A stretch of 32,812 nucleotides of DNA from Nitrososphaeraceae archaeon (GCA_035297365.1 DATGZA010000047.1:1-32812); one strand, 5' to 3'; positions 2,458 to 31,332 are shown, numbered from the stretch's first letter. Made by a program: numbers and translations. The notes: generated by a model not told the origin, from the letters alone.

Positions 2458-3514
2458 ACATTATTATAATCTTAATAGTTGAACTGTTTGATACATCGAT
2501 ATTAATAGTTTTTATCAGAAATTTATTGAATATATAAATTTAATAAATGATTTTATGAAATTTTGTTTTATATATTCAGTTTTTAAATCATTTAAGAGTT
2601 AAAATTGTAAATACAACTTATTTGATCATATCTGATATAACAATCAAAAAAATAAAACTAAAAAATTCTATTTTAGTTTTATTACAGCATATTAGAAAAT
2701 TTTGATTCATTCTATTGTATAATATTAATTTTAAGTTGTGGAAAGTTCTTTTTATCAAACAAGATAATTTATTTTAAATTGATTTAGAAACAAAACACTA
2801 GTTATATATCTGATATTAAATTAAAAGCTGTTTTCAGAGTGATGATTAATTAAAAAGATTATTTTTTGCAAATATATAATAAAATGACAAGCTATTTTAA
2901 TAAATATAGATGTATTTCATTGGCATTTTATATAAAAATAAAATATAGTATTAAGCACCAAGTTTAAATGAAATAAGATATATTCACTAAAAATTGATGA
3001 ATTATCAATAAACAAATGATTGTTAAATTAAGTCTACATAATATTTCAGCGAATATTACAAATTAAATTATGATGACGCAAACAAAAAAATTTGAATGAG
3101 ATATCAATCATGGAAAATCATAATTTTTTTCGATATACAGTTATGATATGTTTACAATCGATTTCATTATTTGACTCCAATTTCTGTTTTTCTATTAAAA
3201 TTTTGCTATTTGGTAGAATAGATGTTTAATAAAACAAAATAAAACTTTTCTCTTTTTGCTTCAACAGTAATATATTATTAAAATTGTGATATGAATATTA
3301 TATCTAAATAACATTCAAGCTTATTATAAAAGTCTTAAATTTATTGAATAGCAAATATTGTAACAAAGTATTAAATTGGATATTTTGTTCTATCACTCAA
3401 TTTTGAAATAAAAGATTTCTAAATTTATTATAATATTCCATATGTTAGAGCTATTCTTGAGTATTTATAATACAATATTTTTAAATTGGGAAACGGAATC
3501 CACAGAATATAATA

Positions 3515-5051: not shown

Positions 5052-8000
5052 TTACTCAATAAAGTCAAAAAGTGAAGATTGTGAATTTTTGACTATTTCT
5101 TTTTCTTTGAAAACATAGCCTAGCTCGATGACAAGTGATTCTATTCTGCTTGAAAGATAATCACTCATTTTAAACCTTTTATTTATATCCAATGCGATAT
5201 GAACATATTTTTCAACAGAATTTCTTGTTACAGTTTGTATTAGATTGTTTCCACATCCTAGACATTTACCCATTAAAGGAATTCTTCTATACTTTTCTCC
5301 GCACCTAGTACATCTAAATGATTGTGATGAATATGAACGCATATTCCCCATAATATCTGGTATTATATGAGTAGTTAAAACCATGGATGCAACTTCGTCT
5401 GGATCTACAGCATTGATTATCTTGGCAGTAGAAATTTGCATTTCCAATTTTTCGTTCATTGTAGTTAATGTAGAATATGCACTATGCTGTATCTCAGTGG
5501 TCAATGTATTAGTATAGTGAGTAAATGAATAATTATAGAATTGTAATTCGGAATCAATTCTGTTTTTAATAATTTCTATTTCATTGACTAGACTTTCTGC
5601 CTTACTATGTTTAAATGATTTTTCGTATAATTGCAGTGGATAATTTGATACAATATCAATATTTAGTGCTTGTCTTTGTACTTCATGGGGTAAAACTATT
5701 GGTTGAATTAATAACGGAGCATCCATTAATCCCCCTATCTTATCCGGAAGGAATTCTTTTGAGAAGTTCAAACATACATCCATTAATAACATGATAGAAT
5801 CAGCATCTCCATCACAATCTCTGCGTTTTGCAGAATGCCATATAGGTGATGCTAAACATACTTGCGAATTTGTGTATCCTATAATTCTACCAATAATCCC
5901 TACAGAAGTATGAGGTGCCAAGCCCACTATGATATGTCCTATCAAATCATCTACAGAGGATGCATTATAAAATGGAGAGAGTCCGTATAGTTTTACAAGC
6001 TCGTTATCTATATATTTAGATACATCAAGTAAATGTTTTGCAGTATCTAATGGTATAACAACATCTTGACTAAATATTTCAATCAACTGATCTTCAGAAT
6101 TTAGATCTTTGCCAAGATGATCTATTTCATATCCTAATTCTTTTAACTTTTCTGGATTACTCATTATACACTTAGGAATAATATGAGTTAATGGTTCGTT
6201 GGTTGCATCATAACGTATTGTGCCATCTTTGAAAGCATAAAGATTGAATGTTTGTCTTAAGATCCCTTTTTCAATTGGCTCAGCAGATCTATTTTTACCC
6301 ATTAAAAGTTTTACTCCTTTCAATGGTTCTTTAGCTTGAATTTGCAATTTTGTTTGTGCTTCTTCTAAAATTTTTCTAAGAGGGTATTTCATTGGGGAAT
6401 ATGTTTTCCCTTCTTTCTTACATTTACTGCATTTATTGTTGGAATATTTATGGTCTTTGGAAGTTAAATGAGATATAGGTTCTCTACAGATTTTACAAAG
6501 AGTTTTTATTATAGTATCAGAAAAACATATTCTGCATCTAGCACCAAGTGACGGTCTTTTACATTTATCACAATAACGATTTGCAATTTCTGTATAGAGA
6601 ATTTCTTCTTTTGATGCTTTAATAAGATCTCTAGTAGCTCCTCCTTTATTTCCAACTGGAAATAAAACATGAACTGGAGGTTTCATTTTCCTCTCTGCTG
6701 CTTTTTCTGGACGTCCTACTCGTACGGCAATGGATGAAGCAAATTTTTGTTTAACAGTTATCCCAGATATTTCAAATACATAATCATGTGTTGATATTTT
6801 AGTTGGTAATTGTTGTACATCTATATTGTTTTTATCTTGGTAAAGTAGTTTATACAGAGAATTTACTTGATTTATATCATTCAGAACAATCAATTGTCCA
6901 TCATTTTTCAATGAATGAACTACCCCTAAACGTTCAAGTATATCCTTTAATTTGTGTTGATAATCAAGTTCAAGTGATTCAAAGTGTTGAATTGCTTGGC
7001 CGATATCAGCAGTGTTGAATAGTTTAACAAGTTCTTTTTGTAAGAGTAAAAGTTCATCTATTGATATTGACTCCCAATAAAATGAATATTTTGGATGCAG
7101 AGCAAGTTTCAAGGATTTACTAAGTTGAAATGCTTCTTTTATTGTAGGAATTTCTTTAAAAGGATTATATGCTAGATCTATTAATCTCTGTTTGGTAGGT
7201 AACTTATTATTAACAAAATTATCTTCATTTTCAAAGATTTTATTCAAATGGGATTTTAATTCTAACGTCCATAATTCCTCTACATAAGAGGCTGGAAGTA
7301 ATTTTGCATTATTTTCTAAAAAGTCACCATAACTAATTAGAATATCGCCTAAATACAAAATTTTTTCTACTCTTTTTTGGAGTTCTAATGCTTGTTCTAT
7401 TGTAGAAACATATGTAACAGTTCCATCATCTAGTTTAACCAATGGAGGCTCTAATGAATCTACGAGAGCTATTGTAGATGCCTTTCCAGGTGTATCAATT
7501 TTAATCTGAGTTCCAACAACTACTGCATAATTTAATAAAACTGGAATAACAGGATGAATTCCGATGGTTGAAAAACCAGTATTATAACAACGACCATATC
7601 TTAATCTGAAGCCACCGATCTTCTTTGACATTGACAACACAGGTCTTCCGGTTATTACTTCAGACATTCTGTGGTGGACTGTATCATCTTCAGTAACACC
7701 TTCTTTTTGTATAGCTCCTTTTAGATCTTTTAGCCAATCCCATCCCTCCAATCCTAAACTATCTATTAATTTTAATAATTTTCTACTTCTTCCTATCAGA
7801 CCATCATTCATTACTCTGAGCGCTCCTCCTCGTACTCGATCTGTGTTTATTCTTTTCATACTTCTATGTCCAATTATTTCTACTGGATCGGTATCTACAC
7901 CATCTAATTCAACTGGTAAATTGGCTATACATTTAATGACGTCTTCATCTAATGTTTTAAATTGAAAATTCCCAACTTCACGTTCATATATACGTAATTC

Positions 8001-8606
8001 TTCCACAAATCTTCCTGTTTCATCATCAAATGAATTTGCTTGATATTTTTCTAGACCTACTACTTTTCTAACATGATCGGCAATTAGCATTGTCAATGCT
8101 GCTTCTGTACCACCTGCTGATCTAATAGGTCCTGCAAATGATACAGAAAGATATTGACTACCATCAGCATTCGTTTTAATTTGAACATCGGAAATTCCTT
8201 GTATTGGTGCAACTGTCACTGCTTCAGTAACAATTGCAAGACTTACACGTACAGCATTATCCAATCTGGTTCTGAGATCATCAGTACCATATTCTCCTAG
8301 CGCAATTTGTTCTGAAATCTTTAAAGCAGCTTTTTCCTTTGTTGTTTGTGATAATAAGATACGTAATCGTTCCGTGATATCAATGTCATGCATCTTTGCA
8401 ACCCTATCTGCTAAATCATAAACTATTTGTGATTCTATAGTTGTTGTTACATCTATTCCTTGATTACGAGCCTGACCTGCTATATTATAAATATTATAGA
8501 CTGATTCTAGAATAGATGTATGATATCTTTCATAAAATAATGGTCTTTTTAACTTTTTTAATTCATGGATGGAGTTCTCATCTAAAAATGAAAAGGTATT
8601 ATTCAT
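5052..8606 (-). CDS. polC: DNA polymerase D large subunit DP2
   Basis: FAGPIRSAGGT, RLRYGR, RVGRPEKA, catalytic KRRDCDGDAD, GGLMDAPL, C-terminal FRCxxC...CxxC zinc finger. 1184 aa, no intein evident. Confidence 0.97.
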   Translation of the reverse strand: MNNTFSFLDENSIHELKKLKRPLFYERYHTSILESVYNIYNIAGQARNQGIDVTTTIESQIVYDLADRVAKMHDIDITERLRILLSQTTKEKAALKISEQIALGEYGTDDLRTRLDNAVRVSLAIVTEAVTVAPIQGISDVQIKTNADGSQYLSVSFAGPIRSAGGTEAALTMLIADHVRKVVGLEKYQANSFDDETGRFVEELRIYEREVGNFQFKTLDEDVIKCIANLPVELDGVDTDPVEIIGHRSMKRINTDRVRGGALRVMNDGLIGRSRKLLKLIDSLGLEGWDWLKDLKGAIQKEGVTEDDTVHHRMSEVITGRPVLSMSKKIGGFRLRYGRCYNTGFSTIGIHPVIPVLLNYAVVVGTQIKIDTPGKASTIALVDSLEPPLVKLDDGTVTYVSTIEQALELQKRVEKILYLGDILISYGDFLENNAKLLPASYVEELWTLELKSHLNKIFENEDNFVNNKLPTKQRLIDLAYNPFKEIPTIKEAFQLSKSLKLALHPKYSFYWESISIDELLLLQKELVKLFNTADIGQAIQHFESLELDYQHKLKDILERLGVVHSLKNDGQLIVLNDINQVNSLYKLLYQDKNNIDVQQLPTKISTHDYVFEISGITVKQKFASSIAVRVGRPEKAAERKMKPPVHVLFPVGNKGGATRDLIKASKEEILYTEIANRYCDKCKRPSLGARCRICFSDTIIKTLCKICREPISHLTSKDHKYSNNKCSKCKKEGKTYSPMKYPLRKILEEAQTKLQIQAKEPLKGVKLLMGKNRSAEPIEKGILRQTFNLYAFKDGTIRYDATNEPLTHIIPKCIMSNPEKLKELGYEIDHLGKDLNSEDQLIEIFSQDVVIPLDTAKHLLDVSKYIDNELVKLYGLSPFYNASSVDDLIGHIIVGLAPHTSVGIIGRIIGYTNSQVCLASPIWHSAKRRDCDGDADSIMLLMDVCLNFSKEFLPDKIGGLMDAPLLIQPIVLPHEVQRQALNIDIVSNYPLQLYEKSFKHSKAESLVNEIEIIKNRIDSELQFYNYSFTHYTNTLTTEIQHSAYSTLTTMNEKLEMQISTAKIINAVDPDEVASMVLTTHIIPDIMGNMRSYSSQSFRCTRCGEKYRRIPLMGKCLGCGNNLIQTVTRNSVEKYVHIALDINKRFKMSDYLSSRIESLVIELGYVFKEKEIVKNSQSSLFDFIE

Positions 8607-9340
8607 TTCGTGATTGCTTGAATAATTTTGAATAGTTTTTTCTCCCAGTTATCGTCATCTTCAATCATTGTTCCAACTACGATAATATCAGCACCAGCAT
8701 CTGCGATCTTTTTTGCAATTTCTGGACTGCGGATACCACCTCCTACTATTAGGATTCCTTCATAGTATTTTTTAACTGCTGATACCATTTCAGGAGAAAC
8801 ATTCTGATTTGCACCTGAACCTGCTTCAAGATATAGAAATCTCATACCAAGATATTGAGCGGCTAGTGAATACATGACAGCTAGATTTAATTTATTAAAT
8901 GGGATACCTTTAGCCTGCCCGATGAACCATGCAGTAGTTCCTTCTCCGATGATTAAATAACCTGTTGGCAAAGCTTCCAATCCAGATTTTTTCACTCCAA
9001 TTGCACCTAATGCCTGTGCTCCAGTTATAAAATAGGGGTTTTCTGAATTTAAAAGTGACATGAATAATATTGCATCAGCATATGGTGATATTCCTGTGAT
9101 GTTACCAGGAAATAATATCACAGGGATTTTAATTGACGATTTTAATTTTGATATCACTTCAGATAACTCAATTTGATCACTAACTGATGAACCGCCAACT
9201 AAAATGGCTGAAGCGCCTAATTGTTCAGCTTTTTTGGCTACAGTTAGCGAATCAAGTGTATTTTCTGAATCGATCAAAGGAAAACAAAGAGTTCCCTTTT
9301 TTTTCCTTTCACTTAAAATATATTTTTCAATTTTATTCAA
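8603..9340 (-). CDS. Geranylgeranylglyceryl phosphate (GGGP) synthase, PcrB family
   Basis: ILVGGS, ILFPG, SLLNS, YLEAGSGA, VGGGIR, IVVGT motifs. 4-bp ATGA overlap with polC. Confidence 0.95.
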   Translation of the reverse strand: MNKIEKYILSERKKKGTLCFPLIDSENTLDSLTVAKKAEQLGASAILVGGSSVSDQIELSEVISKLKSSIKIPVILFPGNITGISPYADAILFMSLLNSENPYFITGAQALGAIGVKKSGLEALPTGYLIIGEGTTAWFIGQAKGIPFNKLNLAVMYSLAAQYLGMRFLYLEAGSGANQNVSPEMVSAVKKYYEGILIVGGGIRSPEIAKKIADAGADIIVVGTMIEDDDNWEKKLFKIIQAITK

Positions 9341-9526
9341 GATTATAATGGGATCGTATAAAGATATTTGCTGACGTAAAATATGTTTTCGGTTTTGAAA
9401 TTAGTAGAATTTGATTAATAGTATTGACTTGAGTAATTCAAATCATTAAATGCAAAAGAATTCATAAAATTGATATTTTTAATAGGAAAATTATTATGAT
9501 AACTAGTTTTTATTTACTATACAGAT

Positions 9527-9910
9527 ATGTATAGTACTAATGATGATAATAGAAACAAAAATTCTTATCTTTTTGATAAAATTATTGAGAAATCCTTATT
9601 TACAAATAGACAAATTTCAATAATTTATAATAAATCAACTGGCGGTAAAATCCATGAAAGAATCAGTTCAGGAGCATATTACCGACAAATCAAACAGTGT
9701 AGAGTTAAAATTGAATCTTTGTTATACAGTATGTTGCTATTAAGATCGTTAAATATTATCGATAATAAAACAATGAATGTTATTGAATCTATAGTTATCC
9801 AACTAAATTCACTGTCGGAAAATACCGAGAATCACATCACATCCAATAATATACAAAGTGATGTGATTGATGTGATTGACAAAATAATTAAAAAGTCAAT
9901 ATCAATATGA
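9527..9910 (+). CDS. Small origin-proximal protein with a Tfx-like/HTH-like signature
   Basis: 127 aa. LFTNRQISII...ISSGAYYRQIKQCRVKIE resembles the 'LTxRQ...S.....R.KIE' pattern of Tfx-type HTH proteins. Function is inferred. Confidence 0.7.
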   Translation: MYSTNDDNRNKNSYLFDKIIEKSLFTNRQISIIYNKSTGGKIHERISSGAYYRQIKQCRVKIESLLYSMLLLRSLNIIDNKTMNVIESIVIQLNSLSENTENHITSNNIQSDVIDVIDKIIKKSISI

Positions 9911-10330
9911 CAGTTATGGTAGATGTATCACATACCAAGTCTACGTTTTATATTAATCACGTTAGCATTATATAATAGCGTGATATATGTGACATAAATT
10001 GGAATTTGATCTCTTAATATTAGTGATTGGAATATTTTTCGTTGTTGGTTTCGTTATTTCTCTTTTAGCTAGAACACAGAAAAGAGAATATAGCATTGAG
10101 AAAGAAAAGAGAAACGAATTCAATCATTACGATATTTTGGAGGCATTAGAAACACGTAAGCAGAATCAAATAGACTATCTTAATAATAAACTTGTGGATG
10201 TTTATACAAAACTTGATAATATAGAATCACAATTATTATTATTGTCACAATCTATTCTAAAAAATCAGTTTATTTCTGATAAGATAGAAGATGTAAAAAA
10301 ACAAGATGTGATATATCACAATAAATCACA
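9831..10330. repeat. Cluster of TGTGAT/ATCACA hexamers, including the perfect palindrome TGTGATATATCACA (10307-10320)
   Basis: Nine exact copies (9831, 9836, 9862, 9871, 9927, 10226, 10307, 10315, 10325) and six single-mismatch copies (9857, 9956, 9979, 9988, 10022, 10244) within 500 bp. Confidence 0.8.
9956..9984 (+). promoter_or_regulatory. TATA box (TTATATAA, 9968-9975) enclosed by the inverted repeat ATCACGTTA / TAGCGTGAT
   Basis: TATA lies about 27 bp before TTG9999. The inverted arms match 8/9 and look operator-like. Confidence 0.55.
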
Positions 10331-10637
10331 TAATCAAGATAGTCCAAAAAAATTATTTGATATTGCTGAAAATCAGAATTCCACAATTCAGTATATTTTA
10401 AAACTTTTGCACAATGAACCAAAGACATCTAATGAGATAAAGAATGCAATTGGTAGAACCCGAGAGCACACATCAAGACTAATGAAAAAATTGTATGAAA
10501 TGAATCTTGTTGAAAGGGATGTTAAGAACAGACCATTTAGATATAGACTTACGGAAGGAGGAAATAAATATCTTCATGAAGAGTATCACAATGATGCTAA
10601 AAATAATGAATCCGAGTCTGTGGTAAGAACTAATTAA
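9999..10637 (+). CDS. Membrane-anchored coiled-coil protein with a C-terminal winged-helix (MarR/ArsR-like) DNA-binding domain
   Basis: N-terminal TM segment LLILVIGIFFVVGFVISLLA, heptad region about aa 45-90, and wHTH YILKLL..PKTSNEIKNAIGRTREHTSRLMKKLYEMNLVER...YRLTEGG. Confidence 0.85.
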   Translation: MEFDLLILVIGIFFVVGFVISLLARTQKREYSIEKEKRNEFNHYDILEALETRKQNQIDYLNNKLVDVYTKLDNIESQLLLLSQSILKNQFISDKIEDVKKQDVIYHNKSHNQDSPKKLFDIAENQNSTIQYILKLLHNEPKTSNEIKNAIGRTREHTSRLMKKLYEMNLVERDVKNRPFRYRLTEGGNKYLHEEYHNDAKNNESESVVRTN

Positions 10638-11714
10638 ATTTTTCATATAACATCCTGAAGTTAATCTACTACGTCAATAAACAATATGTTAGCTGATTGA
10701 GTAGTCATAGCCAAACTAGTAGCTATAAACAATATTATAGTCTTAGTAGAAGTTCTGTACTTGACTATGCGATAGGTTAGTATTACTTTTGATGATTATG
10801 TACATGAACCACTTTTTATGAAACTGCTTAGCAACAAGAGAAAAAAACGGTTTTATCATCATTATTACATGAATTTTGTTGTTTATATCAGATTTTTTTG
10901 TTTATATCGGTAAATCAGGTTCTATTAGTAATTTTTAACAAGATATCCCTCCTATTAATCCATCAGTCAAAAGTCATGCTAAAAGCAGTTCTGACCTCAC
11001 ATTTTATTTCAAAATGTGATATGTGTGTGAGGATGTAATCGTGAATAGCTGTATTTATGCTATTTGTATTAAAAACCATTAATTGAATAAATGAATACAA
11101 AAGACAACATTAATCTATCAACTATTTCTTTTAATAAGATTGATTCAATGGTTACGTAAAATTTATTATTTTATCTTGAAAACAAATTTGAGAATAACAT
11201 ACATTCAATGTTTTTATCTAAAAAATAGAGTAACTAGGCCATAATATTTCTAAATCTGCTGGTAACAATGGTAAGGTGATAGAGGGGTAGAGCTTTTGGT
11301 ATATATACGGTTCTTAATTGGTGTTTCATGGAAAATACCATTGAAAATGAGTAGATATAAACAAAACCTATTGTATGTGGCATAACAACAAAATAACACT
11401 ATAACGATAATGAAACCCTTTTTTCTGTTGTTGGATAAAGTGAAATGTTATTATTAAAGAATGTTGTTACAATGCACTTCTAAAATAGTACTAAGGTCAG
11501 TATTGTTCTATGACATTGTAGTATATTTAGCTGTAAAGAAAGAAATTAACAATCCTCTTATTATAGCATAACAACCTCTTAACTGATTATGACCTTTACA
11601 CAAATTAGTTAACAAGAGTTTGATATATTATTTTATGAAGAAAAACACGTTCAAATTTACTTTTGTTAATAATGTGTTAATTATTAAAAAATAAAAATAC
11701 CGTCTACTTCATTC

Positions 11715-11740
11715 TCCAGTGGAAATAAAGGGGTTGAAAA
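11715..11740 (+). promoter_or_regulatory. Origin recognition box ORB1, TCCAGTGGAAATAAAGGGGTTGAAAA
   Basis: Matches the archaeal ORB consensus TCCAgTGGAAAyaaAGGGGt with G-string. Confidence 0.93.
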
Positions 11741-11774
11741 TAGACCATTAACTAAATTAACATAAATTCAACTT

Positions 11775-11800
11775 TCCAGTGGAAATAAAGGGGTTGAAAA
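11775..11800 (+). promoter_or_regulatory. Origin recognition box ORB2, identical to ORB1 and 60 bp downstream
   Basis: Exact 26-bp direct repeat. Confidence 0.93.
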
Positions 11801-11876
11801 ATACATTTTCTCAATCTAATAATGAATATCTGTGATCTCTGTTAATAAAAAGTTTAATACGGGACTTTTGATGTCT

Positions 11877-11897
11877 CCCCCTATATTTCTATTCCAC
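11877..11897 (-). promoter_or_regulatory. Degenerate inverted ORB (GTGGAATAGAAATATAGGGGG)
   Basis: GAAATAxAGGGG core with G-string, facing ORB1/2. Weaker ORB-like sites at 11413-11435 (-) and 12034-12046 (+). Confidence 0.55.
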
Positions 11898-12078
11898 GAT
11901 ATAATAGAAAATAAGATTAATAAAACTATATTTGTTTAATAAATTTGTTAATATTATTAGATTTAGCGGTTTAAATTTATTTGTTAATAACAAGTTATCA
12001 GCAATATTCAATATGTTAAAATAATTTGGAAAAGAAAAACAGGGGTGTGCGTTATATTTTAAATGGTGAGAAAATATA

Positions 12079-13302
12079 TTGAGTGACGATTTACTTAATA
12101 ATATCTTTGATGATGCAGTAAAAGGTAAATCATTAATTAAAAATCGTAAAATTTTGACAATAGATTATGTACCTGAAAAACTTCAATTTCGTGATGAAGA
12201 AACGATGACTATTGCACAAACATTGTCAGTAGCTCTAAAAGGTTCTAGACCATCAAATCTATTGTTATTTGGAAAACCGGGTACGGGAAAGACTGCTGTT
12301 ATAAAAAATGTTATTAAAAAATTCACGGAAAAATCTTCCTCACTCGGAATTGAAGTAATAGTGCCATTTGTTAATGCGAAACTAGCGAATACTGCATACA
12401 AGGTATTATATGAAATTGCTGAAGAGATGTGTATTAACAAGATCGAAAAAAGAAACCAAGTTTATTTTACTGGTTTGTCTTTAGGTGAAGCAACCAATAG
12501 AATTCTTGATTTCATCCAAAAAAGAAAATTACATGTCATTTTTGTTATTGATGAAATTGATTCACTAGTTGATAAAAATGGAGATGATATTCTTTATAAT
12601 TTTACCAGGGCAAATGAACAGTTTCAAGATTCTGGATTTATTACATTAATCGGAATTTCAAACAGTCTTACATTCAAAGATAAATTAGATCCTCGTGTCC
12701 GTAGCAGTTTAAGTGAAGAAGAAATTGTATTCAATCCATATAAAATTATTCAGCTGCAAAAAATATTATCAGAGAGAGTAAAGTTAGCATTTTCTGATGA
12801 TGTTGTCACAGACGGAGCTATAAATCTATGCGCAGCTATTGCAGGAAAAGATAATGGTGATGCTAGAAAAGCGATAGATTTACTTAGGGTAGCAGCAGAA
12901 ATAGCAGAACGAGAAAAAGATTCTAAAATTGATGAAAAATATATTCGATTGGCTCAACATAAAATAGAGAAAGATACAAATTTCGAAGTGATAAAAAACT
13001 CAACTACTCATACAAAAATAGTACTACTGGCAATTACTAAATCCAAAAATGGAAATACTGGTGAGGTTTATGAGATATATTCGAACTATTGTAAAACAAT
13101 TGATAACGAACCTCTCAGTCAACGTAGAATAACTCAAATTATAAGTGAACTTGATCAATTAGGGTTAATCAATACTAATATAGTAAATCAAGGTAGATAT
13201 GGTCGTTCACAGAAAATAAAAATTTCTATTTCTACAGATACACTAAAAGAAGCCCTAAAAGAAGATCCATTATTTCTTACATTGATGCATATTCTTGATT
13301 AA
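12079..13302 (+). CDS. cdc6: Orc1/Cdc6 replication initiator
   Basis: Walker A GKPGTGKT, Walker B VIDEID, LDPRVRSSL, GDARKAIDLLR, C-terminal winged helix with GRYGRS. Confidence 0.97.
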   Translation: MSDDLLNNIFDDAVKGKSLIKNRKILTIDYVPEKLQFRDEETMTIAQTLSVALKGSRPSNLLLFGKPGTGKTAVIKNVIKKFTEKSSSLGIEVIVPFVNAKLANTAYKVLYEIAEEMCINKIEKRNQVYFTGLSLGEATNRILDFIQKRKLHVIFVIDEIDSLVDKNGDDILYNFTRANEQFQDSGFITLIGISNSLTFKDKLDPRVRSSLSEEEIVFNPYKIIQLQKILSERVKLAFSDDVVTDGAINLCAAIAGKDNGDARKAIDLLRVAAEIAEREKDSKIDEKYIRLAQHKIEKDTNFEVIKNSTTHTKIVLLAITKSKNGNTGEVYEIYSNYCKTIDNEPLSQRRITQIISELDQLGLINTNIVNQGRYGRSQKIKISISTDTLKEALKEDPLFLTLMHILD

Positions 13303-14899
13303 AATTGATCTGAAAAGGACGAAGAGTAGCAAGATTAACTAAAATTGCGATCGCAGATGTAGGTATTATTCCCATAGTTTGTTGAAAAGGAGTTTGACCC
13401 TGCCATGTACCAGAATTAATAATTAATGTACCATGATAATTTTGTACATCCATGACATGAACATGTCCTGAATGGAATACATCAGGTATCTCATTTATTA
13501 CCATCATATCTTCTAATTCAGGAGAAATTGGTGTTCTTTGTCCATAAATTGGAGATAAATGTCTTGCCTTTAATAATATTTTCATTGCCTCAGCAGGATT
13601 TGCATAGCTTAAACCAGGTATTGTAGCGATGATATCATCTAATCCCTGTCCATGATACATTAAAATTTTAACTCCCTCAAGTTCAATAAAACTAGGATTT
13701 CCCAGCATCGTAAAATTTTCAAATGAATACAATTTTGGACAATCTTTTTTAGGAACTGCAGGTTGTGGTAACGCTCTTCGTCCAAGATCATGGTTTCCAG
13801 GGATAATAAAAACTTGAATTCTCTTAGGAATTTGTTCTAATAATTTTGTTAATTGACTCATTTGTCTAAATGTATTATTATACTTTAATTCTTTGTCTTG
13901 ATTAGGAAATATTCCTACACCATCTATTAAATCACCACCAATACATAAAAAATTTATTTTAGATACTATTTCATCATCAGACGAATTCAGCCAATTTAAA
14001 AATCGTAAAAAATCTGTTTCTTTGAAATACTTACTTCCAACATGAAGATCTGAAATTAAAACCGCATATGATTCTCTTTTTCCTTTATTTGGGATGTGAT
14101 CTGGGATATCTGGAGAAACAACATTTTTTATAATATGATTATTTCCCTTGTTTTCAATTTCTATCATTACCATTTGATCAAGGGTCAATTTAGAAACAAG
14201 TTTTATTGTCTCATCAGTTACTGCTAATGTATTAATAATTCCAGTTTGATCGTCTATTGTTAATTCTGTGCTATTTCTTTTTGATCTCTTTGACATTACC
14301 AAACCTGCAATAACTGAAGAATATCCACCCAAAGAGGCATTATTATTTTCTATCTTTTTATCATTATATTCTATGTTTAAATTATTATTTTGTTTTTTTT
14401 GATTATTACTTTTTTTTACAAATGCTATCTTATTAATGCGTTTACTATCTGGCCTGGTTGATAAGATTTTTAACGATTTCGTAAAACGACTTTTAAAAAG
14501 TGAAGTGTAACCGTTTATTCCTTCACCTGAGTTAATATAGTCAGTAGAATCAAAAATTATTTTATAGGAATCCTTTAAATCAATATTCTCAGTTGATGAA
14601 TTTGTAGATTGATATACTGATGAGCTAGAAACCACATGGTGGGTATGAAATTTTTCTATAATCTCTTGATCATTTTTAACAAAATTATTCTGATCAACAG
14701 TAATACAACAAATTTTGATATCATCTGTACCAATAATAGTATCACTACCATTTTTTTTCTTGTATTTTACTACCTGTTGAATAACATTCATTTTATTTGA
14801 ATCAATATCTTTTAAAAGCGTAAATGCATCAGGATGTATTTGGTATCCATTAGCAGTAATAAAAGATAATACATTAGAAATTTCTTTTTGTAATGACAA
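13277..14899 (-). CDS. polB: DNA polymerase D small subunit DP1 (proofreading exonuclease)
   Basis: Calcineurin-like phosphoesterase motifs SDLHVGS, GDLIDG, PGNHD, YHG, HSGHVH, plus an OB-fold region. Convergent 26-bp overlap with cdc6. Confidence 0.96.
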   Translation of the reverse strand: MSLQKEISNVLSFITANGYQIHPDAFTLLKDIDSNKMNVIQQVVKYKKKNGSDTIIGTDDIKICCITVDQNNFVKNDQEIIEKFHTHHVVSSSSVYQSTNSSTENIDLKDSYKIIFDSTDYINSGEGINGYTSLFKSRFTKSLKILSTRPDSKRINKIAFVKKSNNQKKQNNNLNIEYNDKKIENNNASLGGYSSVIAGLVMSKRSKRNSTELTIDDQTGIINTLAVTDETIKLVSKLTLDQMVMIEIENKGNNHIIKNVVSPDIPDHIPNKGKRESYAVLISDLHVGSKYFKETDFLRFLNWLNSSDDEIVSKINFLCIGGDLIDGVGIFPNQDKELKYNNTFRQMSQLTKLLEQIPKRIQVFIIPGNHDLGRRALPQPAVPKKDCPKLYSFENFTMLGNPSFIELEGVKILMYHGQGLDDIIATIPGLSYANPAEAMKILLKARHLSPIYGQRTPISPELEDMMVINEIPDVFHSGHVHVMDVQNYHGTLIINSGTWQGQTPFQQTMGIIPTSAIAILVNLATLRPFQINFNQEYASM

Positions 14900-14995: not shown

Positions 14996-15514
14996 TTGAA
15001 ACAACGCCTATTGTATCTCGTGATTGGAATGATAGTTTTTCTCATTTCATATACTTCTGGTGCCTACTCACATATTGGTTCACAACAATCTAAAATATTA
15101 AAAGAACAATTTGAATCAAAAATACAAGGCATTGATGAATTTGGAATATTTTTCAACAATGTAGTTATAGCCTTGGGCATGTTTATTCCTGGACTTGGAA
15201 TAGGGCTTGGAATATTCTCTGGTTTTGGTACTGGACTGGTTTTTAGTGCACTAGCAGAGAGTAATATAGCATTACAAAATATTTCGCCTCTTTCGATACT
15301 TCTTACACCATTTGGTATCTTGGAAATATTTTCATATGGATTGGCTATATCTAGAAGCGGAATGATAATTCACGATTACTTTATAAAAAAAATTTCATGG
15401 AAAAAATTTCTTAAGCCAACTATAATAGAGATTATAATCGTTGTATCTCTTTTAATAATAGGTGCTTTTATAGAATGGAATATGATCAAACAATTTACAG
15501 AAACTCCAATTTAG
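14996..15514 (+). CDS. SpoIIM-family (DUF95-like) integral membrane protein
   Basis: IFFNN...G pattern, PFGILE motif, GAFIE near the C-terminus, several TM helices. Confidence 0.8.
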   Translation: MKQRLLYLVIGMIVFLISYTSGAYSHIGSQQSKILKEQFESKIQGIDEFGIFFNNVVIALGMFIPGLGIGLGIFSGFGTGLVFSALAESNIALQNISPLSILLTPFGILEIFSYGLAISRSGMIIHDYFIKKISWKKFLKPTIIEIIIVVSLLIIGAFIEWNMIKQFTETPI

Positions 15515-15742: not shown

Positions 15743-16519
15743 TTGATTTATAAGTTCAAAAAGATAATGATAAAACTAATATTGCAAGGAATAAAAATTC
15801 ACTATAAACCTAAATTTAAAGAGAATCCAATTATTATTGCAGCACTTCCAGATATGGGTAATGTAGCTGGATTATGTCAAAAATTATTATTGAATAAAAT
15901 AGAGACAAAGCTTTTTGCAGAAATATTTGCATTTTGGCCTCCTTATGTTACCTATAACAAAGGAATTATTAACTATTCTCAGTCCAGCTATAAGTTTTAT
16001 GCAAGTATAAAATATAATGTTATCATATTTACAGGTGATTTTAATCCTTCTGATCCACGAAGATTATATGAATTATGTTATGAAGTTTTGAAAATTGCTC
16101 AGGAATTTCATGTAAAAACGTTATATTCTTTGGGTGCATCATTAAAACCAATAAATACAATTGAGAAACTTGTGTATGCTGCTGTCAATAAAATAGATCT
16201 TGTTAAATTCTTGCAAAATCTAAACATACAAATATTACCAGACGATGGACAAATAACAGGTTTTAATGGTTTAATTTTAGGAATATCTAAAGAATACAAC
16301 TTGGATGCAATTTGCATCCTAGGAGAAATAGATAATCCAGATGTAATTCAACCAAAAACCGCCCAAGAAATCCTGAAAGTATTATTAGAAATATTAAACC
16401 TTTCTTTTATTGATCTTTCGGAGTTAGATGAAGAAGAAAAAAGGAAAAAGTTTATGGAACAGCAAATGAATTATTTCAATAGTGCAATTCAAAAAAGTGA
16501 TCTTCCTGGAATATCATAA
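15743..16519 (+). CDS. PAC2-family proteasome assembly chaperone (start may be ATG15767)
   Basis: ALPDMGNVAG, YSLGA, GQITGFNGLILG, ICILGE motifs. Confidence 0.88.
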   Translation: MIYKFKKIMIKLILQGIKIHYKPKFKENPIIIAALPDMGNVAGLCQKLLLNKIETKLFAEIFAFWPPYVTYNKGIINYSQSSYKFYASIKYNVIIFTGDFNPSDPRRLYELCYEVLKIAQEFHVKTLYSLGASLKPINTIEKLVYAAVNKIDLVKFLQNLNIQILPDDGQITGFNGLILGISKEYNLDAICILGEIDNPDVIQPKTAQEILKVLLEILNLSFIDLSELDEEEKRKKFMEQQMNYFNSAIQKSDLPGIS

Positions 16520-17516: not shown

Positions 17517-18461
17517 ATGAGCGAACTAAAGCTCGAATTTGTGGGTAAACAAGTTAAGGATATGTATGGAACACTTATGGGAACAGTTATTGGAATAATT
17601 ACCGATACTGACGGTTCTATAGAATCTGTTAGTGTAGATTGTGGTGATTCTGGTTTAAAACAATTAGCTTATGAACAATTACTAGTTCAAGGAGACTATG
17701 TCATATTCATTCCAAGATGGAGATTAGATGCACAAAAATTATTTAGGCAAAAGAATCTTACACTAAAGAGGATTAAAGCACTTCAAAAATTAGTTGAAGA
17801 AGATGATGCAATGAAAGAAGATGTTGAAATAGTTTATGCAAGATATGAAAAAAAATTACAAGATTTAGAAGATAAAGAAAAATCAATTAATGACAAATTA
17901 ATAGAAAGACTTGATGAACTAAATAAATCAACGAAAAGTATTAAATCAATTCTATTTGACGCCAAATTGCAATACCGAAGTAATGAAATTAGTGAAGAAA
18001 CCTATCTTCAGGTTACACGATATACAAAAGAATTAATGGATCATATTAATTTGGAAAAAGAGGAAATTAATAGTATAAAAATTCGACTTGAAGAACAAAA
18101 TTTAGAAAACACATTACCACTACCTCATTCTATACCACAACAACATGAAACAGAAGAACAAAAAGAAAAGTTAATAGAAAATACTTCCTATACTAGTACA
18201 AATTTGATCACCAATTCTGCTGACACTACAACAACGACAACAACGACAACAACTATTGATACCACTGGTACAGTTTCTACTACTTCTAATATTCCTACAA
18301 CAGACCCAAGTACAGATACAAAAGAACCTGAACAATTTAAACAAGTTTCAACTAATACTCAACCAGAATCATATACAAAACAAAACAAAGAAAGATACTA
18401 TTCTACAACCAATGACACTGATAATGAAACCAACTGGCTAGATCAAGTAATTAATAGTTAG
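17517..18461 (+). CDS. cdvA: Cell division protein CdvA
   Basis: N-terminal PRC barrel (FVGKQVKDMYG..G.V...), IPxWR motif, long coiled coil, low-complexity linker and short C-terminal peptide. Confidence 0.88.
   Translation: MSELKLEFVGKQVKDMYGTLMGTVIGIITDTDGSIESVSVDCGDSGLKQLAYEQLLVQGDYVIFIPRWRLDAQKLFRQKNLTLKRIKALQKLVEEDDAMKEDVEIVYARYEKKLQDLEDKEKSINDKLIERLDELNKSTKSIKSILFDAKLQYRSNEISEETYLQVTRYTKELMDHINLEKEEINSIKIRLEEQNLENTLPLPHSIPQQHETEEQKEKLIENTSYTSTNLITNSADTTTTTTTTTTIDTTGTVSTTSNIPTTDPSTDTKEPEQFKQVSTNTQPESYTKQNKERYYSTTNDTDNETNWLDQVINS
18225..18256 (+). repeat. (ACN)n poly-Thr microsatellite inside cdvA
   Basis: ACTACAACAACGACAACAACGACAACAACT run encodes a long poly-Thr tract. Confidence 0.8.
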
Positions 18462-22360: not shown

Positions 22361-23995
22361 TTGGATAATTTGGTTGATTCATTTTCAGAAGATGAAAAAA
22401 GAGTTCTTTTATCACATTTTTCCAATATAGACAAAACTATTTTTGTGATAACAACACCCAGACAAGTAGACCGTGGCGCATTAATGTCCAGATATTCAAG
22501 ATCTGATAAAACAATGCGTAGAATCTTTCTAGATGAATTTGTAAAAAATCCATATCGTGGAGAAGAGTTTTACAAGAAAGTGCTATTAGAATATGGTGAT
22601 GACTCTGTTGCAGAATTAGGAGAAATGCAATTAGCTATTGAATCAATATCTAATATAGCCGCTAAAAATATCGAAGATCATAGAATAGGGTTGTCATATC
22701 TAGAAAAATCATCACGTTATGTTTCTTTTAACAAGAAAATTAATGGCAAGTATAAGTATCTAAGAGAAAACAAAATCATGGATTCTTCTTATGCTGATAT
22801 GTATATTGAAGCTTGTGATTTTGCATTTGACACATATTCAGAAAATATTGAACCAATGCAAAAATTTTTATCAGAAATTGAACCGATAGAAAATTTTCAT
22901 TTCTTTGATTCATATTCTAATCATGAAACATTTTTCAATAATTTGAAGGATCCTGAGGATATTAAATCTGCACAACGTATATACAATAGTACAATAAAAG
23001 CCAAATCACTAGATATTTTACGTGGAATTTTACCTGCTTCTACATTAACCAATCTGGGAATCACTGGAAACGGAAGAGCATTTGAATATTTACTTACAAA
23101 AATGTATTCTTCATCTTTACATGAAATGAATAATTTGGCCGATCAACTTTACGAAGAACTTGATTTAACAATATCATCATTTATCCATAGAGTAAAAAGC
23201 AATCACGGGATATCAATGCAAAATTATCTTAAAGAAACAAAGAATATGATTATTGAACTAGCATTTACACATCTGTCTAAGATTATTCCAGATAATAATC
23301 CTGATTATATTACTCTATTATATTATGAAAATAATTTCGATGCAGAAATTAAAGTAGCATCTGCCATTTTATATCAACAAGCTTTAGGTCATTCTCTAGC
23401 AACAATTATCAATTATGTAAAGTCATTACCTAAAGAAGAAAGACACAAAATAATTAATACCTATACAAGTCTACGAACAAATAGAAGACAACGTCCAGGT
23501 AGAGCCTTCGAAATGATAGAGTATACATTTGAAATGTTTACTAATTTTGGCATGTTTCGTGATCTTCACAGACATCGAATACTAACCCTAGAAAGACAAT
23601 TGCTCTCAACCAGACACGGATATGATATTCCTAATGAAATTATTGAATTGGGGATAACCAAAAATTTCAAGGATTCTATGTATAAATGTGACGAAGTCTT
23701 CAAAATCATTGCTAAAGATAATCCAGAAGAAGCACAATATGTTGTAAATTTTGCCTATAAATATCCATATTTTATCAAACTAAATCTAAGGGAAGCAACA
23801 CATATGATTGAATTAAGGACACTACCACAAGGACATCCTGATTATCGTTACATTTGTCAGGAAATGTACAAGAAAATAAGAAATGTACATCCACTATTGT
23901 GCCAAGGAATAAAATTTGTCGATCTCAATACTTACAAATTAGAAAGATTGTCTAGCGAAAAAAAAATAGAAAAGAAAAAAAGGGATATAAACTAA
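22361..23995 (+). CDS. thyX: Flavin-dependent thymidylate synthase, long tandem-domain form
   Basis: Two ThyX-like halves ([16 protein letters not shown] and RDLHRHR), LRGILP, NLRE..H.IELR. 544 aa. Confidence 0.9.
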
Positions 23996-24079: not shown

Positions 24080-25105
24080 TCAAACAAACCATTTTTCTAA
24101 AGATTGAGTACGTCTTTCTCGAATTTTTTTTAATCTATCTAAAGCCATCTCAACTCTTTCTTTTGAAAAATCCATTTTTTCACACAAAAAACTCGTAATT
24201 TGATTAGAATCAGGCTCCTTAAATTCTATGTTTTCAATTGATATGTCGTCAGGATGGAGAAAAATTTCTCTTATTTCTTGATAAGGAACATTTTCCAAAC
24301 TTTCTTTTATCTTGTTAATTTTTTCCAATCTGCCATTTTCCTTAATTAATTTTAATGCAGTTTTTGGACCAATACCTGGAAAACCACCAGGATTAAAATC
24401 CGTACCTATTAAAATTCCTACATCCACCAATTGTTCTAATGTCAATTTCGTTGATTCCAAAATTAATGATTGATAAATAATCTCTGGTTCTATACTTACA
24501 TATTTATTTTTATTGGGAATCTTTCTTCTACCACTTATTGTTAAATTACGGATCAATTTTTTAGCACCAAAAAGCAAGGAATCATAGTCTTGACTTCCAC
24601 AAGCGAAAACAACCCCATTTCTTGTTAAATATGATGCTGCTGCCTCTCCTTCTGATGTTGCTTGAAGAATAGGAATTCCTAAAAGTTCTAAAATTTTTTT
24701 CGATTGTTCTATTATTTTACCAGTTAAAATTACTGTACCCTGACTATATTTCCGTGCGTCTTCCAGTCTGCCTTCGGCTAATGCCACTTGATATTTTTCA
24801 ACCGCTTCTTGTTTCAATTTCTTTCGCTTTTCAATTTCTTTAGATTTTAGCTGATGAGGTTTACCATCAAATATGTATATCAATTTTATATTTTCTGATA
24901 AAAAATTGATATTTCTATAGAATAATCCACTTAGATGACTTGTTATATCTCCATTATTGTTCGTAAGAGATTCACCCGTTAGACCACGAATGGTGGCAAG
25001 AAATTGATATATTGTATTGTATGCATCAACAGCTATTATTTTATCTGACAGGTCAGAAAGTTTTATCGGAGAAGAAGTTATGATAGGTTTAAGATCTATT
25101 CCCAT
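24080..25105 (-). CDS. fen: Flap endonuclease 1
   Basis: DAYNTIYQFLATIR, SHLSGLFYR, SEGEA, SQDYDSLLFG, GTDFN..G..GIGPKTA, C-terminal PIP box QSLEKWF. Confidence 0.97.
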   Translation of the reverse strand: MGIDLKPIITSSPIKLSDLSDKIIAVDAYNTIYQFLATIRGLTGESLTNNNGDITSHLSGLFYRNINFLSENIKLIYIFDGKPHQLKSKEIEKRKKLKQEAVEKYQVALAEGRLEDARKYSQGTVILTGKIIEQSKKILELLGIPILQATSEGEAAASYLTRNGVVFACGSQDYDSLLFGAKKLIRNLTISGRRKIPNKNKYVSIEPEIIYQSLILESTKLTLEQLVDVGILIGTDFNPGGFPGIGPKTALKLIKENGRLEKINKIKESLENVPYQEIREIFLHPDDISIENIEFKEPDSNQITSFLCEKMDFSKERVEMALDRLKKIRERRTQSLEKWFV

Positions 25106-30750: not shown

Positions 30751-31332
30751 TTGAATAAAAAAATAACAATAAACTTTCTTATTAAAAACTCTGTATCTAT
30801 AATAATAGTAGTTGTAATTTTCATTATATCAATTGTTGGTACTTGCGGTGTTTTATTGATAAATGGTCAAGCACCTTCCTCATCAAATATTGATATTTCC
30901 CAATGTGATAAAGTGATAAATGCCACTTCCTCAACAGGGATGATACATGGAAGTATAACTAATGATTGTATAAACGGAGGAAAAAGTAATGATATTTTGT
31001 ACGGCGGATTGGGTTATGATATTTTAAATGGAAACGAAGGTGATGATGAACTAATAGGTGATTCTGGGAACGATAAATTGTATGGTGGACTAGGAGATGA
31101 TGATTTAGTTGGCAATTTAGGAGACGATCTACTTGACGGTGGAGATGGAAATGATGTACTTAAAGGAAATAAAGGTAATGATAAATTGATAGGAGGAAAT
31201 GGTGATGATACGTTGATAGGTAATTCGGGTGCTGATTTTTACATATGTGGATCAGGAAATGATATCATAGTACAGTTTAACAATTTGAACGGAGATAGAA
31301 AAACTGCAGATTGTGAAACAGTAACAAGATAA
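30751..31332 (+). CDS. Secreted/anchored RTX (hemolysin-type) calcium-binding repeat protein
   Basis: N-terminal hydrophobic segment followed by 12 consecutive GGxGxDxLx-like nonapeptides. Confidence 0.9.
   Translation: MNKKITINFLIKNSVSIIIVVVIFIISIVGTCGVLLINGQAPSSSNIDISQCDKVINATSSTGMIHGSITNDCINGGKSNDILYGGLGYDILNGNEGDDELIGDSGNDKLYGGLGDDDLVGNLGDDLLDGGDGNDVLKGNKGNDKLIGGNGDDTLIGNSGADFYICGSGNDIIVQFNNLNGDRKTADCETVTR

Follow-up and report, generated by a model that had tools for sequence, protein, structure and literature searches.

A conserved TGTGAT array beside an archaeal replication origin and its probable reader, a membrane-anchored winged-helix protein

The stretch of DNA analysed here (the window, 32,812 nucleotides) is contig C47 (DATGZA010000047.1) of the 2.52-Mb, 97% complete genome of a soil ammonia-oxidising archaeon, Nitrososphaeraceae archaeon (GCA_035297365.1). 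Two co-oriented genes near its replication origin, called g127 and g212 after the number of residues that they encode, are overlain, together with their spacer, by an array of TGTGAT/ATCACA hexamers. The array is real and ancient: it is conserved across proteins that are just 25-50% identical, including those of other classes. Its probable binder is g212, a predicted single-pass membrane protein with a C-terminal winged helix-turn-helix (wHTH), and we consider it fairly probable that multi-site autorepression by membrane-bound g212 pins the origin-flanking DNA to the membrane. An initial annotation of the stretch had proposed an origin-tethering system in which both proteins bind the array; the origin linkage and the motif cluster of that interpretation were borne out whereas binding by g127 was not. 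The features on which the argument turns are these.

9516-9535: perfect 8+8 palindrome ACTATACA-GATA-TGTATAGT, straddling the g127 ATG
9527-9910, plus strand: g127, open reading frame of 127 residues, co-oriented with g212
9831-9841 and 9862-9876: first part of the array, ATCACATCACA and TGTGATTGATGTGAT, in the last 26 codons of g127
9927-9993: second part of the array, over the g212 core promoter (ATCACA 9927-9932, ATCACG 9956-9961, CGTGAT 9979-9984, TGTGAC 9988-9993)
9967-9976: TATA box of g212, ATTATATAAT, between the ATCACG and CGTGAT boxes
9999-10637, plus strand: g212, open reading frame of 212 residues with a TTG start
Residues of g212: predicted membrane anchor 4-24, heptad helix to about 95, disordered linker 95-124, winged helix 122-195
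10226-10330: third part of the array, inside g212 (ATCACA at 10226, palindrome 10307-10320, ATCACA 10325-10330)
10585-10590: outlying ATCACA near the g212 3' end, at a position not conserved in relatives; its membership in the array is uncertain

Nine of the hexamers fall within the 500 bp from 9831 to 10330, and the overlay on both genes and their spacer that had been described in the initial annotation is thus confirmed. None of 1000 dinucleotide-preserving shuffles reached nine (the highest 500-bp count was 6). The genome holds 1466 TGTGAT/ATCACA in its 2.52 Mb (0.58 per kb), and the g127-g212 locus is its densest 500-bp cluster, the runner-up having 4. To avoid post hoc choice of the word, all hexamers were ranked against their genome frequencies. 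Among the 361 distinct hexamers in 9800-10350 ATCACA ranked first, with 9 occurrences for 0.32 expected (Poisson 7e-11); ATGTGA and AATCAC, words that overlap it, came next, and the longer consensus is near ATGTGAT. At 10307-10320 two sites together make up a perfect 14-bp palindrome, TGTGATATATCACA. The last three sites of the third part lie within the codons of the g212 disordered linker; in the first part, the first pair lies in a low-confidence loop of the g127 AlphaFold2 model (residues 102-105), and the second codes for a conserved DVIDVID helix of g127.

The array is kept in relatives. In all 10 same-genus loci (the window included) the interval from the upstream GGGPS gene to Cdc6 carries 3.3-5.2 sites per kb versus 0.5-0.9 in the flanks, and in seven of these loci this is so despite a g212 identity of just 38-50%. 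Three site positions are retained: the last ~30 codons of g127, two boxes 17-41 bp before the g212 start, and g212 codons 92-116. The orthologs have 3-4 ATCACA in those g212 codons, where the peptide is not conserved; depending on the ortholog the hexamer is translated as I-T, x-H-x or S-H/S-Q, and all three frames are used. Retention of the positions in every frame over an unconserved peptide indicates selection on the DNA. When g212 codons were shuffled synonymously, the observed count exceeded the shuffle mean in 16 of 16 orthologs, and 0-148 of 2000 shuffles reached it. At greater distance, the same unbiased ranking over the gene pair was applied to 41 order- and class-level loci, of which 19 have ATCACA among the first three hexamers, and to 20 loci that belong to other classes of the phylum, of which 6 have it among the first two (first in L091, L092, L094, L096 and L108, second in L101), so that the motif cluster does recur in relatives. 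In some loci variant words are seen instead: one-letter variants lead in L076 (CGTGAT) and in L070 and L079 (AGTGAT), and GTGAC-type words are present in L093, L098 and L103. The sites of the other classes lie mostly in a longer g127-g212 spacer, which is intergenic DNA. As this spacer is just 88 bp in the window lineage, the sites here have apparently been displaced into codons under the least constraint.

That the hexamers are no cis-element at all, and result from peptide repeats, codon usage or AT-rich composition, is hardly credible. Two of the sites do encode the conserved DVIDVID helix, synonymous g127 shuffles often reach the observed count, and the whole-window number of hexamers is ordinary (33 versus 26.8 expected). 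However, such an origin is contradicted by the shuffled sequences and by the genome-unique cluster, by the sites in noncoding promoter DNA and in intergenic DNA of other classes, and by retention at 25-50% protein identity, in all three frames of an unconserved linker.

The protein encoded by the second gene has the transmembrane-coiled coil-winged helix architecture given in the initial annotation: Kyte-Doolittle hydropathy, AlphaFold2 and the Pfam matches to TrmB and HTH_27 agree. The N-terminal helix has a 19-residue Kyte-Doolittle mean of 3.19 (pass mark 1.6) and is followed by RTQKR. In 40 of 41 orthologs, L052 being the exception, this N-terminal mean is at least 1.78, and Lys or Arg follows the anchor in 39, with none within the next 12 residues in L048 and L070. 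The predicted topology leaves few N-terminal residues outside and puts the body of the protein in the cytoplasm. AlphaFold2 models a single helix over residues 2-99, a segment with a predicted local distance difference test score (pLDDT) below 50 over 95-124, the winged helix at 122-195 and, in the monomer, a further helix after the wing (186-209). The heptad a/d positions of the long helix are 70% hydrophobic versus 28% elsewhere, a crude measure for which the best register was picked. The winged helix passes the Pfam cut-offs for TrmB (26.7 bits, cut-off 25.6) and HTH_27 (26.8 bits, cut-off 22.2). Foldseek matches it to the MarR-family proteins ZitR, AdcR and ST1710 (E 9e-5 to 1e-3), and the g212 wHTH profile matches AdcR at E 6.3e-5. 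A WhiP/Cdt1-like initiator was considered and rejected, since g212 combines just one wHTH with an anchor and Pfam gives it no initiator match.

The g212 family is single-copy in 129 of the 151 genomes of the class, including 105 of the 111 of high quality; the tally includes the unpublished genome G170, on which the claim does not depend. Of 104 genomes that represent other classes of the phylum, 58 have a member. In 1.84 billion proteins it forms 827 representative clusters at 50% identity, and the 150 listed span 113-272 residues; the only database labels are "helix-turn-helix domain-containing" or "hypothetical". Full-text searches of open-access papers and bioRxiv found no paper on the gene pair or the array. 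Contigs from RNA libraries lie on g212 (10014-10629; four soil runs of two studies), which is a weak hint, as such libraries can hold DNA. Others lie on g127 (9549-9697, one run), GGGPS and cdc6. None covers 9798-10013 or 10710-11963 and none bridges g127 and g212, but lack of cover shows nothing. A sister subfamily in other classes (L097, L099, L101, L102 and L105) has the REH helix and a coiled-coil-like N-terminal part, without membrane anchor, g127 neighbour or nearby cdc6; at least L101 has a TGTGAT array of its own, which extends to either side of the gene.

The recognition helix suggests which DNA is read. It has the sequence T-R-E-H-T-S-R (R155, E156, H157 and R160), and R-E-H-x-x-R is invariant in 36 of 36 sequences of the g212 wHTH profile. 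The profile segment SREHtaRllKkLyekglv aligns with SREMVGRVLKSLEEQGLV of Vfr (E 2.8e-4), and the profile matches about 20 CRP sequences (E ~1.5e-3 to 2.4e-3); in the HMMER alignment, which covers Vfr/CRP residues 167-198, R-E-H-x-x-R falls on the helix SREMVGRVLKSL. A phmmer search with the single g212 wHTH sequence gave nothing at E <0.3, CRP and Vfr being reached by the profile alone. As described in the CRP literature, R180-E-T-V-G-R185 of CRP reads the half-site TGTGA, Arg180 contacting G2 and both Glu181 and Arg185 contacting the G4:C4 pair (PMC11253593), and the R-E-x-x-x-R triad is held to set specificity across the CRP family (PMC2677863). The same Arg-Glu-x-x-x-Arg triad is found in g212, where R155, E156 and R160 are invariant, and the array word (A)TGTGAT contains the CRP half-site. 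The helix points to TGTGA and the hexamer ranking, from an independent direction, to TGTGAT, which makes g212 the probable binder of the array. We predict that g212 reads DNA in the manner of CRP without being a member of that family. None of the genome's seven weak matches to CRP-family proteins passes the Pfam cut-off, and g212 is the only strong match in the genome to its own wHTH profile. By eye, the helix variants REHT, REHI, REHA and REHV gave no clean rule when set against the motif variants TGTGAT, CGTGAT, AGTGAT and GTGAC.

Moreover, the array follows g212 rather than g127 or oriC. Locus L101 has 8 sites versus 0.74 expected around a g212-like gene with no anchor and no g127 or cdc6 nearby, and L097 is similar at the level of 5-mers. 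The earlier claim that both proteins bind the array is therefore not upheld: the array tracks g212 alone, and g127 has a palindrome of its own.

That g127 is a 127-residue Tfx/HTH-like protein stands, with a reservation. The protein has no Pfam match at E up to 1, and its AlphaFold2 model (pLDDT 80) has five helices and no strands. In VIA-align, residues 22-68 superpose on the helix-turn-helix (HTH) and stem helix of EnfR (8hno_A; Z 6.0, root-mean-square deviation (rmsd) 1.1 A over 47 residues, 30% identity), and the HTH also superposes on LuxR-type EsrB (Z 6.5) and on sigma region 4 chains (Z 5.2-5.3), all Z values being in a range common for helical models. Foldseek against the PDB found nothing at E 0.001 or better, PDB sequence searches gave chance-level rows only, and in the Atlas the protein falls in "hypothetical protein" clusters with a Sigma70_r4 lead at 0.83, below the trust level. 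Like the Tfx-family proteins EnfR of Thermococcus onnurineus and MTH0916, g127 has a sigma-70 region 4-like HTH followed by a long "stem" helix; unlike them, it lacks the alpha+beta TFX_C "note-head" domain, its model being all-helical and assigned to no Pfam family. EnfR is described as a Tfx-family repressor that sits as a dimer on a promoter pseudo-palindrome (PMC10570040). At the start of g127, all 10 same-genus loci share an invariant ATACA and TGTATA when aligned. TATACA-N4-TGTATA, the exact core, is present in 9 of them (L042 reads AATACA), is found at the g127 frame start in 20 of 53 loci, which include other families and classes, and occurs once in the 2.52-Mb genome. This palindrome may be g127's own operator or may form a 5' hairpin. 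A sigma/anti-sigma pair was also considered for g127 and g212 and was rejected, as the layout does not fit.

We regard it as very unlikely that g127 or an unlinked factor binds the array and that the presence of g212 is coincidental. The HTH of g127 does have invariant residues (G49, Y51, R53, Q57 and K61), a gene matching the g127 profile adjoins g212 in 39 of 40 loci, and four hexamers lie in the 3' end of g127. However, arrays are present in L101 and L097, where no g127 was found, the g127 start codon has a different conserved palindrome, the g127 promoter of the window (9341-9526) holds no hexamer, and the CRP-type triad is on g212 rather than on g127.

The best-supported activity that we infer for g212 is autorepression. 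When the 10 same-genus g212 promoters were aligned, two invariant GTGA(T) boxes lay between the TATA box and an invariant TTG, and in 6 of the 10 an inverted ATCAC(G/A) box lay just 5' of the TATA box. The TATA box precedes the TTG start by ~25-30 bp in all 10, a distance that hints at a leaderless mRNA; a leaderless mRNA beginning with UUG is unusual. Other archaeal repressors that bind downstream of the TATA box block polymerase recruitment. Binding limited to a single promoter operator, which the initial annotation had named as one outcome that would count against its proposal, describes the locus in part: the invariant boxes between the TATA box and the start have the anatomy of autorepression, but there are 6-12 sites per locus.

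The mechanism that we propose is as follows. The hexamers would be the half-sites to which g212 binds. This single-pass membrane protein would have a cytoplasmic part in which a heptad, probably dimerising helix leads through a flexible linker of ~30 residues to the winged helix that is predicted to read TGTGA through its CRP-type Arg-Glu-x-x-x-Arg triad. Some 10 half-sites of mixed orientation and spacing surround the g212 promoter. Occupied promoter boxes would block polymerase recruitment and turn off g212 transcription (negative autoregulation), and the flanking half-sites would raise local avidity; in the compact lineage the sites would have been written into the least constrained codons, those of the g212 linker and of the loop in the g127 tail. 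With the binder fixed in the membrane, an occupied array would place the origin-flanking DNA there, and the locus, with the oriC core 1.1-1.9 kb away, would be held at the membrane, possibly to the benefit of the cell. The g127 protein would be a separate Tfx-like regulator acting on the palindrome at its own start codon.

Several observations weigh against this account. The analogy with CRP is a 32-residue hidden Markov model alignment with E values of ~1e-3 to 1e-4. The g212 scores for HTH_Crp_2 (17.1 bits, cut-off 27) and Crp (13.2 bits, cut-off 21) are below the cut-offs, and the His at the third position of the g212 recognition helix is absent from CRP. The exact hexamer ranks below third in 22 of the 41 order- and class-level loci and below second in 14 of the 20 phylum-level loci, and some of these low-ranking loci have no clear word. 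The sites inside g127 are largely accounted for by the amino-acid sequence: when g127 was shuffled synonymously, 46 of 2000 shuffles reached the observed count in the window and 11-1002 of 2000 did so in the orthologs, which is not significant in most of them. Note that the test is weak for g127 because two sites encode the DVIDVID helix. The half-sites are irregular in spacing and orientation, which is unusual for a rigid dimeric repressor, although such irregularity would fit winged helices on flexible 30-residue linkers that extend from a membrane-bound dimer. Finally, a protein with its own gene as the only visible target has no evident purpose.

A search for a regulon found none genome-wide, single hexamers (1466) being beyond judgement. 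Secondary clusters of 3-5 hexamers in 100-500 bp (on C7, C48, C15, C62, C60 and C27) lie mostly inside unrelated open reading frames and show no pattern, and a close pair on C106 also gave no regulon pattern. Outside the locus close hexamer pairs number ~6, whereas a rough estimate would predict ~8. A possible second target was noted in a close relative (G017:C10:1107390-1107496), where two direct TGTGAT pairs on opposite strands are separated by 90 bp at a site remote from the origin locus.

These results bear on a further explanation, namely that g212 is a conventional transcription factor stored at the membrane and released by proteolysis or another signal, the array being a strong auto-operator. 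We consider this quite unlikely. Boxes that overlap the promoter are classic repressor anatomy, the disordered 30-residue linker could be a cleavage site, and the anchor-less relatives of the sister subfamily (L097, L099, L101, L102 and L105) share the helix and have arrays, and therefore the DNA-binding module works without a membrane. Single hexamers at other promoters are also possible. On the other side, no second cluster or above-chance paired site was found in the genome, in five related genomes direct pairs numbered 3-22 versus 1-27 in a reversed-pattern control, no protease gene is conserved beside the pair, and 6-12 sites are far beyond the need of autoregulation.

The replication origin and its surroundings are arranged as follows.

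5052-8606, minus strand: PolD large subunit
8603-9340, minus strand: GGGPS/PcrB (Pfam PcrB 1.7e-55)
10638-12078: spacer between g212 and cdc6, 1.44 kb, which holds the origin recognition boxes (ORBs)
11712-11800, plus strand: two ORB-type direct repeats TCCAGTGGAAATAAAGGGGTTGAAAA, 60 bp apart (starts ~11713 and ~11773), the oriC core; direct-repeat family D1
12079-13302, plus strand: orc1/cdc6 initiator gene (Pfam Cdc6_C 6.5e-25, Cdc6_lid 2.5e-23, AAA 1.2e-12)
13277-14899, minus strand: PolD small subunit
14996-15514, plus strand: SpoIIM-family membrane protein (PF01944 1.2e-6), directly after the PolD small subunit
15743-16519: PAC2
17517-18461, plus strand: CdvA gene (Pfam CdvA 7e-26), 5.4 kb from cdc6
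22361-23995: ThyX
24080-25105: FEN1

The origin lies between g212 and cdc6. In the initial annotation the two co-oriented genes were said to abut oriC; they are indeed co-oriented and no gene intervenes, but they do not touch it, as the first ORB is 1.08 kb beyond the g212 stop codon. The distance from the hexamer array (9831-10330) to the ORB pair is 1.4-1.9 kb. The genes form one syntenic block, PolD-GGGPS-g127-g212-oriC-Cdc6-PolD, and the origin linkage of the orthologs expected from the initial annotation was found: at the order level all 20 loci have Cdc6 no more than 3.4 kb from the pair (the numbering origin intervenes in two complete genomes), at the class level 16 of a further 20 have it no more than 1.3 kb away, and among 20 loci of other classes 9 do so, with three more at 3.7-3.9 kb. 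Most related loci have an ORB element between g212 and cdc6. Eight phylum-level loci have no cdc6 within 8 kb, and in family f23 the pair has remained beside GGGPS whereas the ORBs have remained with cdc6, at a distance of 4.4-7.1 kb or beyond the locus. Since GGGPS and PolD are equally syntenic, adjacency alone is no proof of an origin function.

A dedicated origin tether or segregation system, in which the array is centromere-like and g212, perhaps with g127, fixes new origins to the membrane for partitioning, possibly in connection with Cdv division, is the interpretation closest to the initial annotation. Autoregulation would then come as a side effect, as it does where plasmid centromeres overlap par promoters. 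We judge this unlikely, though worth weighing. The gene order g127-g212-oriC(ORB)-cdc6 is kept in the order, class and phylum loci just counted, the array is a single genome-unique cluster with more sites (6-12) than ordinary operators have, and g212 is near-universal and single-copy in the high-quality genomes of the class. There is no sensor domain on the outer side of the anchor; with an N-terminus of ~3 residues, anchoring cannot serve signal sensing. No other g212 target is visible in the genome hexamer scans, and the CdvA gene is 7 kb away. Against these points, the array follows g212 and not the origin, persisting in L101 and L097 without anchor and without cdc6 within 8 kb; relatives of this kind, with arrays but neither anchor nor origin linkage, speak for self-binding as the earlier trait, with no need of the origin. 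The anchor-bearing loci L098, L104 and L107 also have no cdc6 within 8 kb, the ORBs of family f23 have parted from the pair, and the adjacency may reflect an inherited order of genes. The window encodes no partner NTPase. The absence of a ParA/SegA ATPase that had been reported for it was confirmed, as the genome's PF13614 (5) and PF01656 (9) matches are all on other contigs (C14, C44, C56, C61, C65, C75, C91 and C94) and none is on C47. No homology to ParB, SegB, RacA or Noc was found: g212 has no ParB-type Pfam match, and the ParB HTH reached just E 0.016-0.038 over 29 residues. Lastly, there is one cluster on one side of oriC, versus the dispersed sets of ram, NBS and parS sites.

With no sensor and no visible second target, a selected origin anchor, as opposed to a side effect of an autoregulated factor, is possible. 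A tentative and rather doubtful extension of membrane-bound autorepression is a motor-less anchoring device in which integral membrane g212 grips the centromere-like half-site cluster beside oriC and ties every copy of the origin to the envelope, growth and Cdv constriction then partitioning the chromosomes without ParA. It is no less speculative that this device would be common to ammonia-oxidising archaea and several other classes of Thermoproteota, with autorepression titrating the anchor to one set per origin.

Some features of the surroundings were also recorded. CdvA, FEN1, ThyX and PAC2 make up a replication and division gene neighbourhood around oriC, and the SpoIIM-family gene accompanies the oriC block in the majority of same-genus loci and also in several other families. 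The g212-cdc6 spacer is also ~1.4 kb in the two closest relatives (L041 and L042) and just 0.48-0.55 kb in the remaining seven same-genus loci; the ~0.9 kb of extra AT-rich DNA between g212 and the ORBs has no open reading frame, Rfam match or RNA-library contig. ACCCCT/AGGGGT was seen 4 times versus 0.31 expected in 9341-12078, and besides both ORBs there are, by eye, AGGGGT-type words near 11278-11283 and 12042-12047. Rfam gave no match in 9300-12100 at E up to 1 and, in the whole window, a tRNA-Val only (2382-2457), which adjoins a very AT-rich stretch (2501-3500, GC 0.16-0.20). An open reading frame of 193 residues (30751-31332, plus strand) has RTX calcium-binding nonapeptide repeats (PF00353, 1.1e-23), which are unexpected for an archaeon.

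To our knowledge, no mechanism of chromosome positioning and separation is known in Nitrososphaeria. The accessible text of a 2024 review, which describes SegB, gives SegAB for Sulfolobus and ParA/ParB homologs for Asgard archaea and names no segregation mechanism for Thaumarchaeota (PMC7617429). The locus described here offers a testable handle: a near-universal single-copy gene pair next to oriC, a predicted DNA word, predicted contact residues (R155, E156 and R160) and a unique genome target. Even if autoregulation were all, there would be a predicted CRP-type TGTGA reading head in an archaeal membrane protein, regulatory sites in the codons of a disordered segment, in varying frames and phylum-wide, and a family of ~800 sequence clusters that lack informative labels.

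Among known systems, the CRP/FNR proteins resemble g212 in the triad and the half-site; they differ in that g212 is archaeal and membrane-anchored, lacks the cyclic-nucleotide-binding or effector beta-roll (no Pfam match, and a long helix before the wHTH in the model), and has half-sites that are not in the TGTGA-N6-TCACA geometry. Regulators of the MarR/TrmB type, which the g212 winged helix matches above the TrmB and HTH_27 cut-offs and in Foldseek, are typically autoregulated repressors. In g212, however, the dimer interface that they form from N- and C-terminal helices appears to be replaced by the anchor, the heptad helix and the disordered linker, there is no ligand pocket, and 6-12 half-sites take the place of one palindrome. 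AspA of pNOB8 also shares the winged-helix fold (5k5q_C, E 2e-3, template-modelling score 0.72 by target; 4rs8_A, rmsd 2.4 A over 80 columns), but this is a general wHTH similarity that ranks below many MarR proteins, and AspA is soluble and works with ParB and ParA.

ToxR and CadC are single-pass membrane proteins that bind DNA and draw their target promoter to the membrane, and g212 would likewise be a membrane-held direct DNA binder. ToxR has an N-terminal cytoplasmic wHTH of the OmpR type and a C-terminal periplasmic sensor. The g212 layout is the reverse, with the anchor at residues 4-24 and a C-terminal wHTH, after which there is only a helix and a disordered tail.

In Bacillus, Noc with its NBS sites and RacA with ram and DivIVA are specific DNA binders that link chromosomal sites to the envelope or to a segregation machine. 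These systems and SegAB share with g212 the logic of joining a DNA binder to the envelope or to such a machine. They use many dispersed sites and peripheral membrane binding or an adaptor, and SegAB works with a ParA-type ATPase, whereas g212 has a single cluster, an integral anchor, no nearby ATPase and no sequence relationship that we found. In the parC-ParR system of plasmid R1 the iterated sites flank or overlap the promoter of the binder's operon, and parS is found inside the spo0J/parB coding sequence. Such ParR-parC and parS arrays are at once autoregulatory operator and positioning site, those on chromosomes being close to the origin. The two binders, ParR (a ribbon-helix-helix protein) and ParB (a CTPase with an HTH), are not homologous to g212, which has no ParM or ParA motor gene adjacent and would position DNA by direct membrane insertion. 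The likeness is in the layout of the DNA: the g212 array too lies around its own promoter, inside its own coding sequence and close to the origin, and thus has the clustered, specific, origin-proximal sites that are characteristic of ParABS and SegAB.

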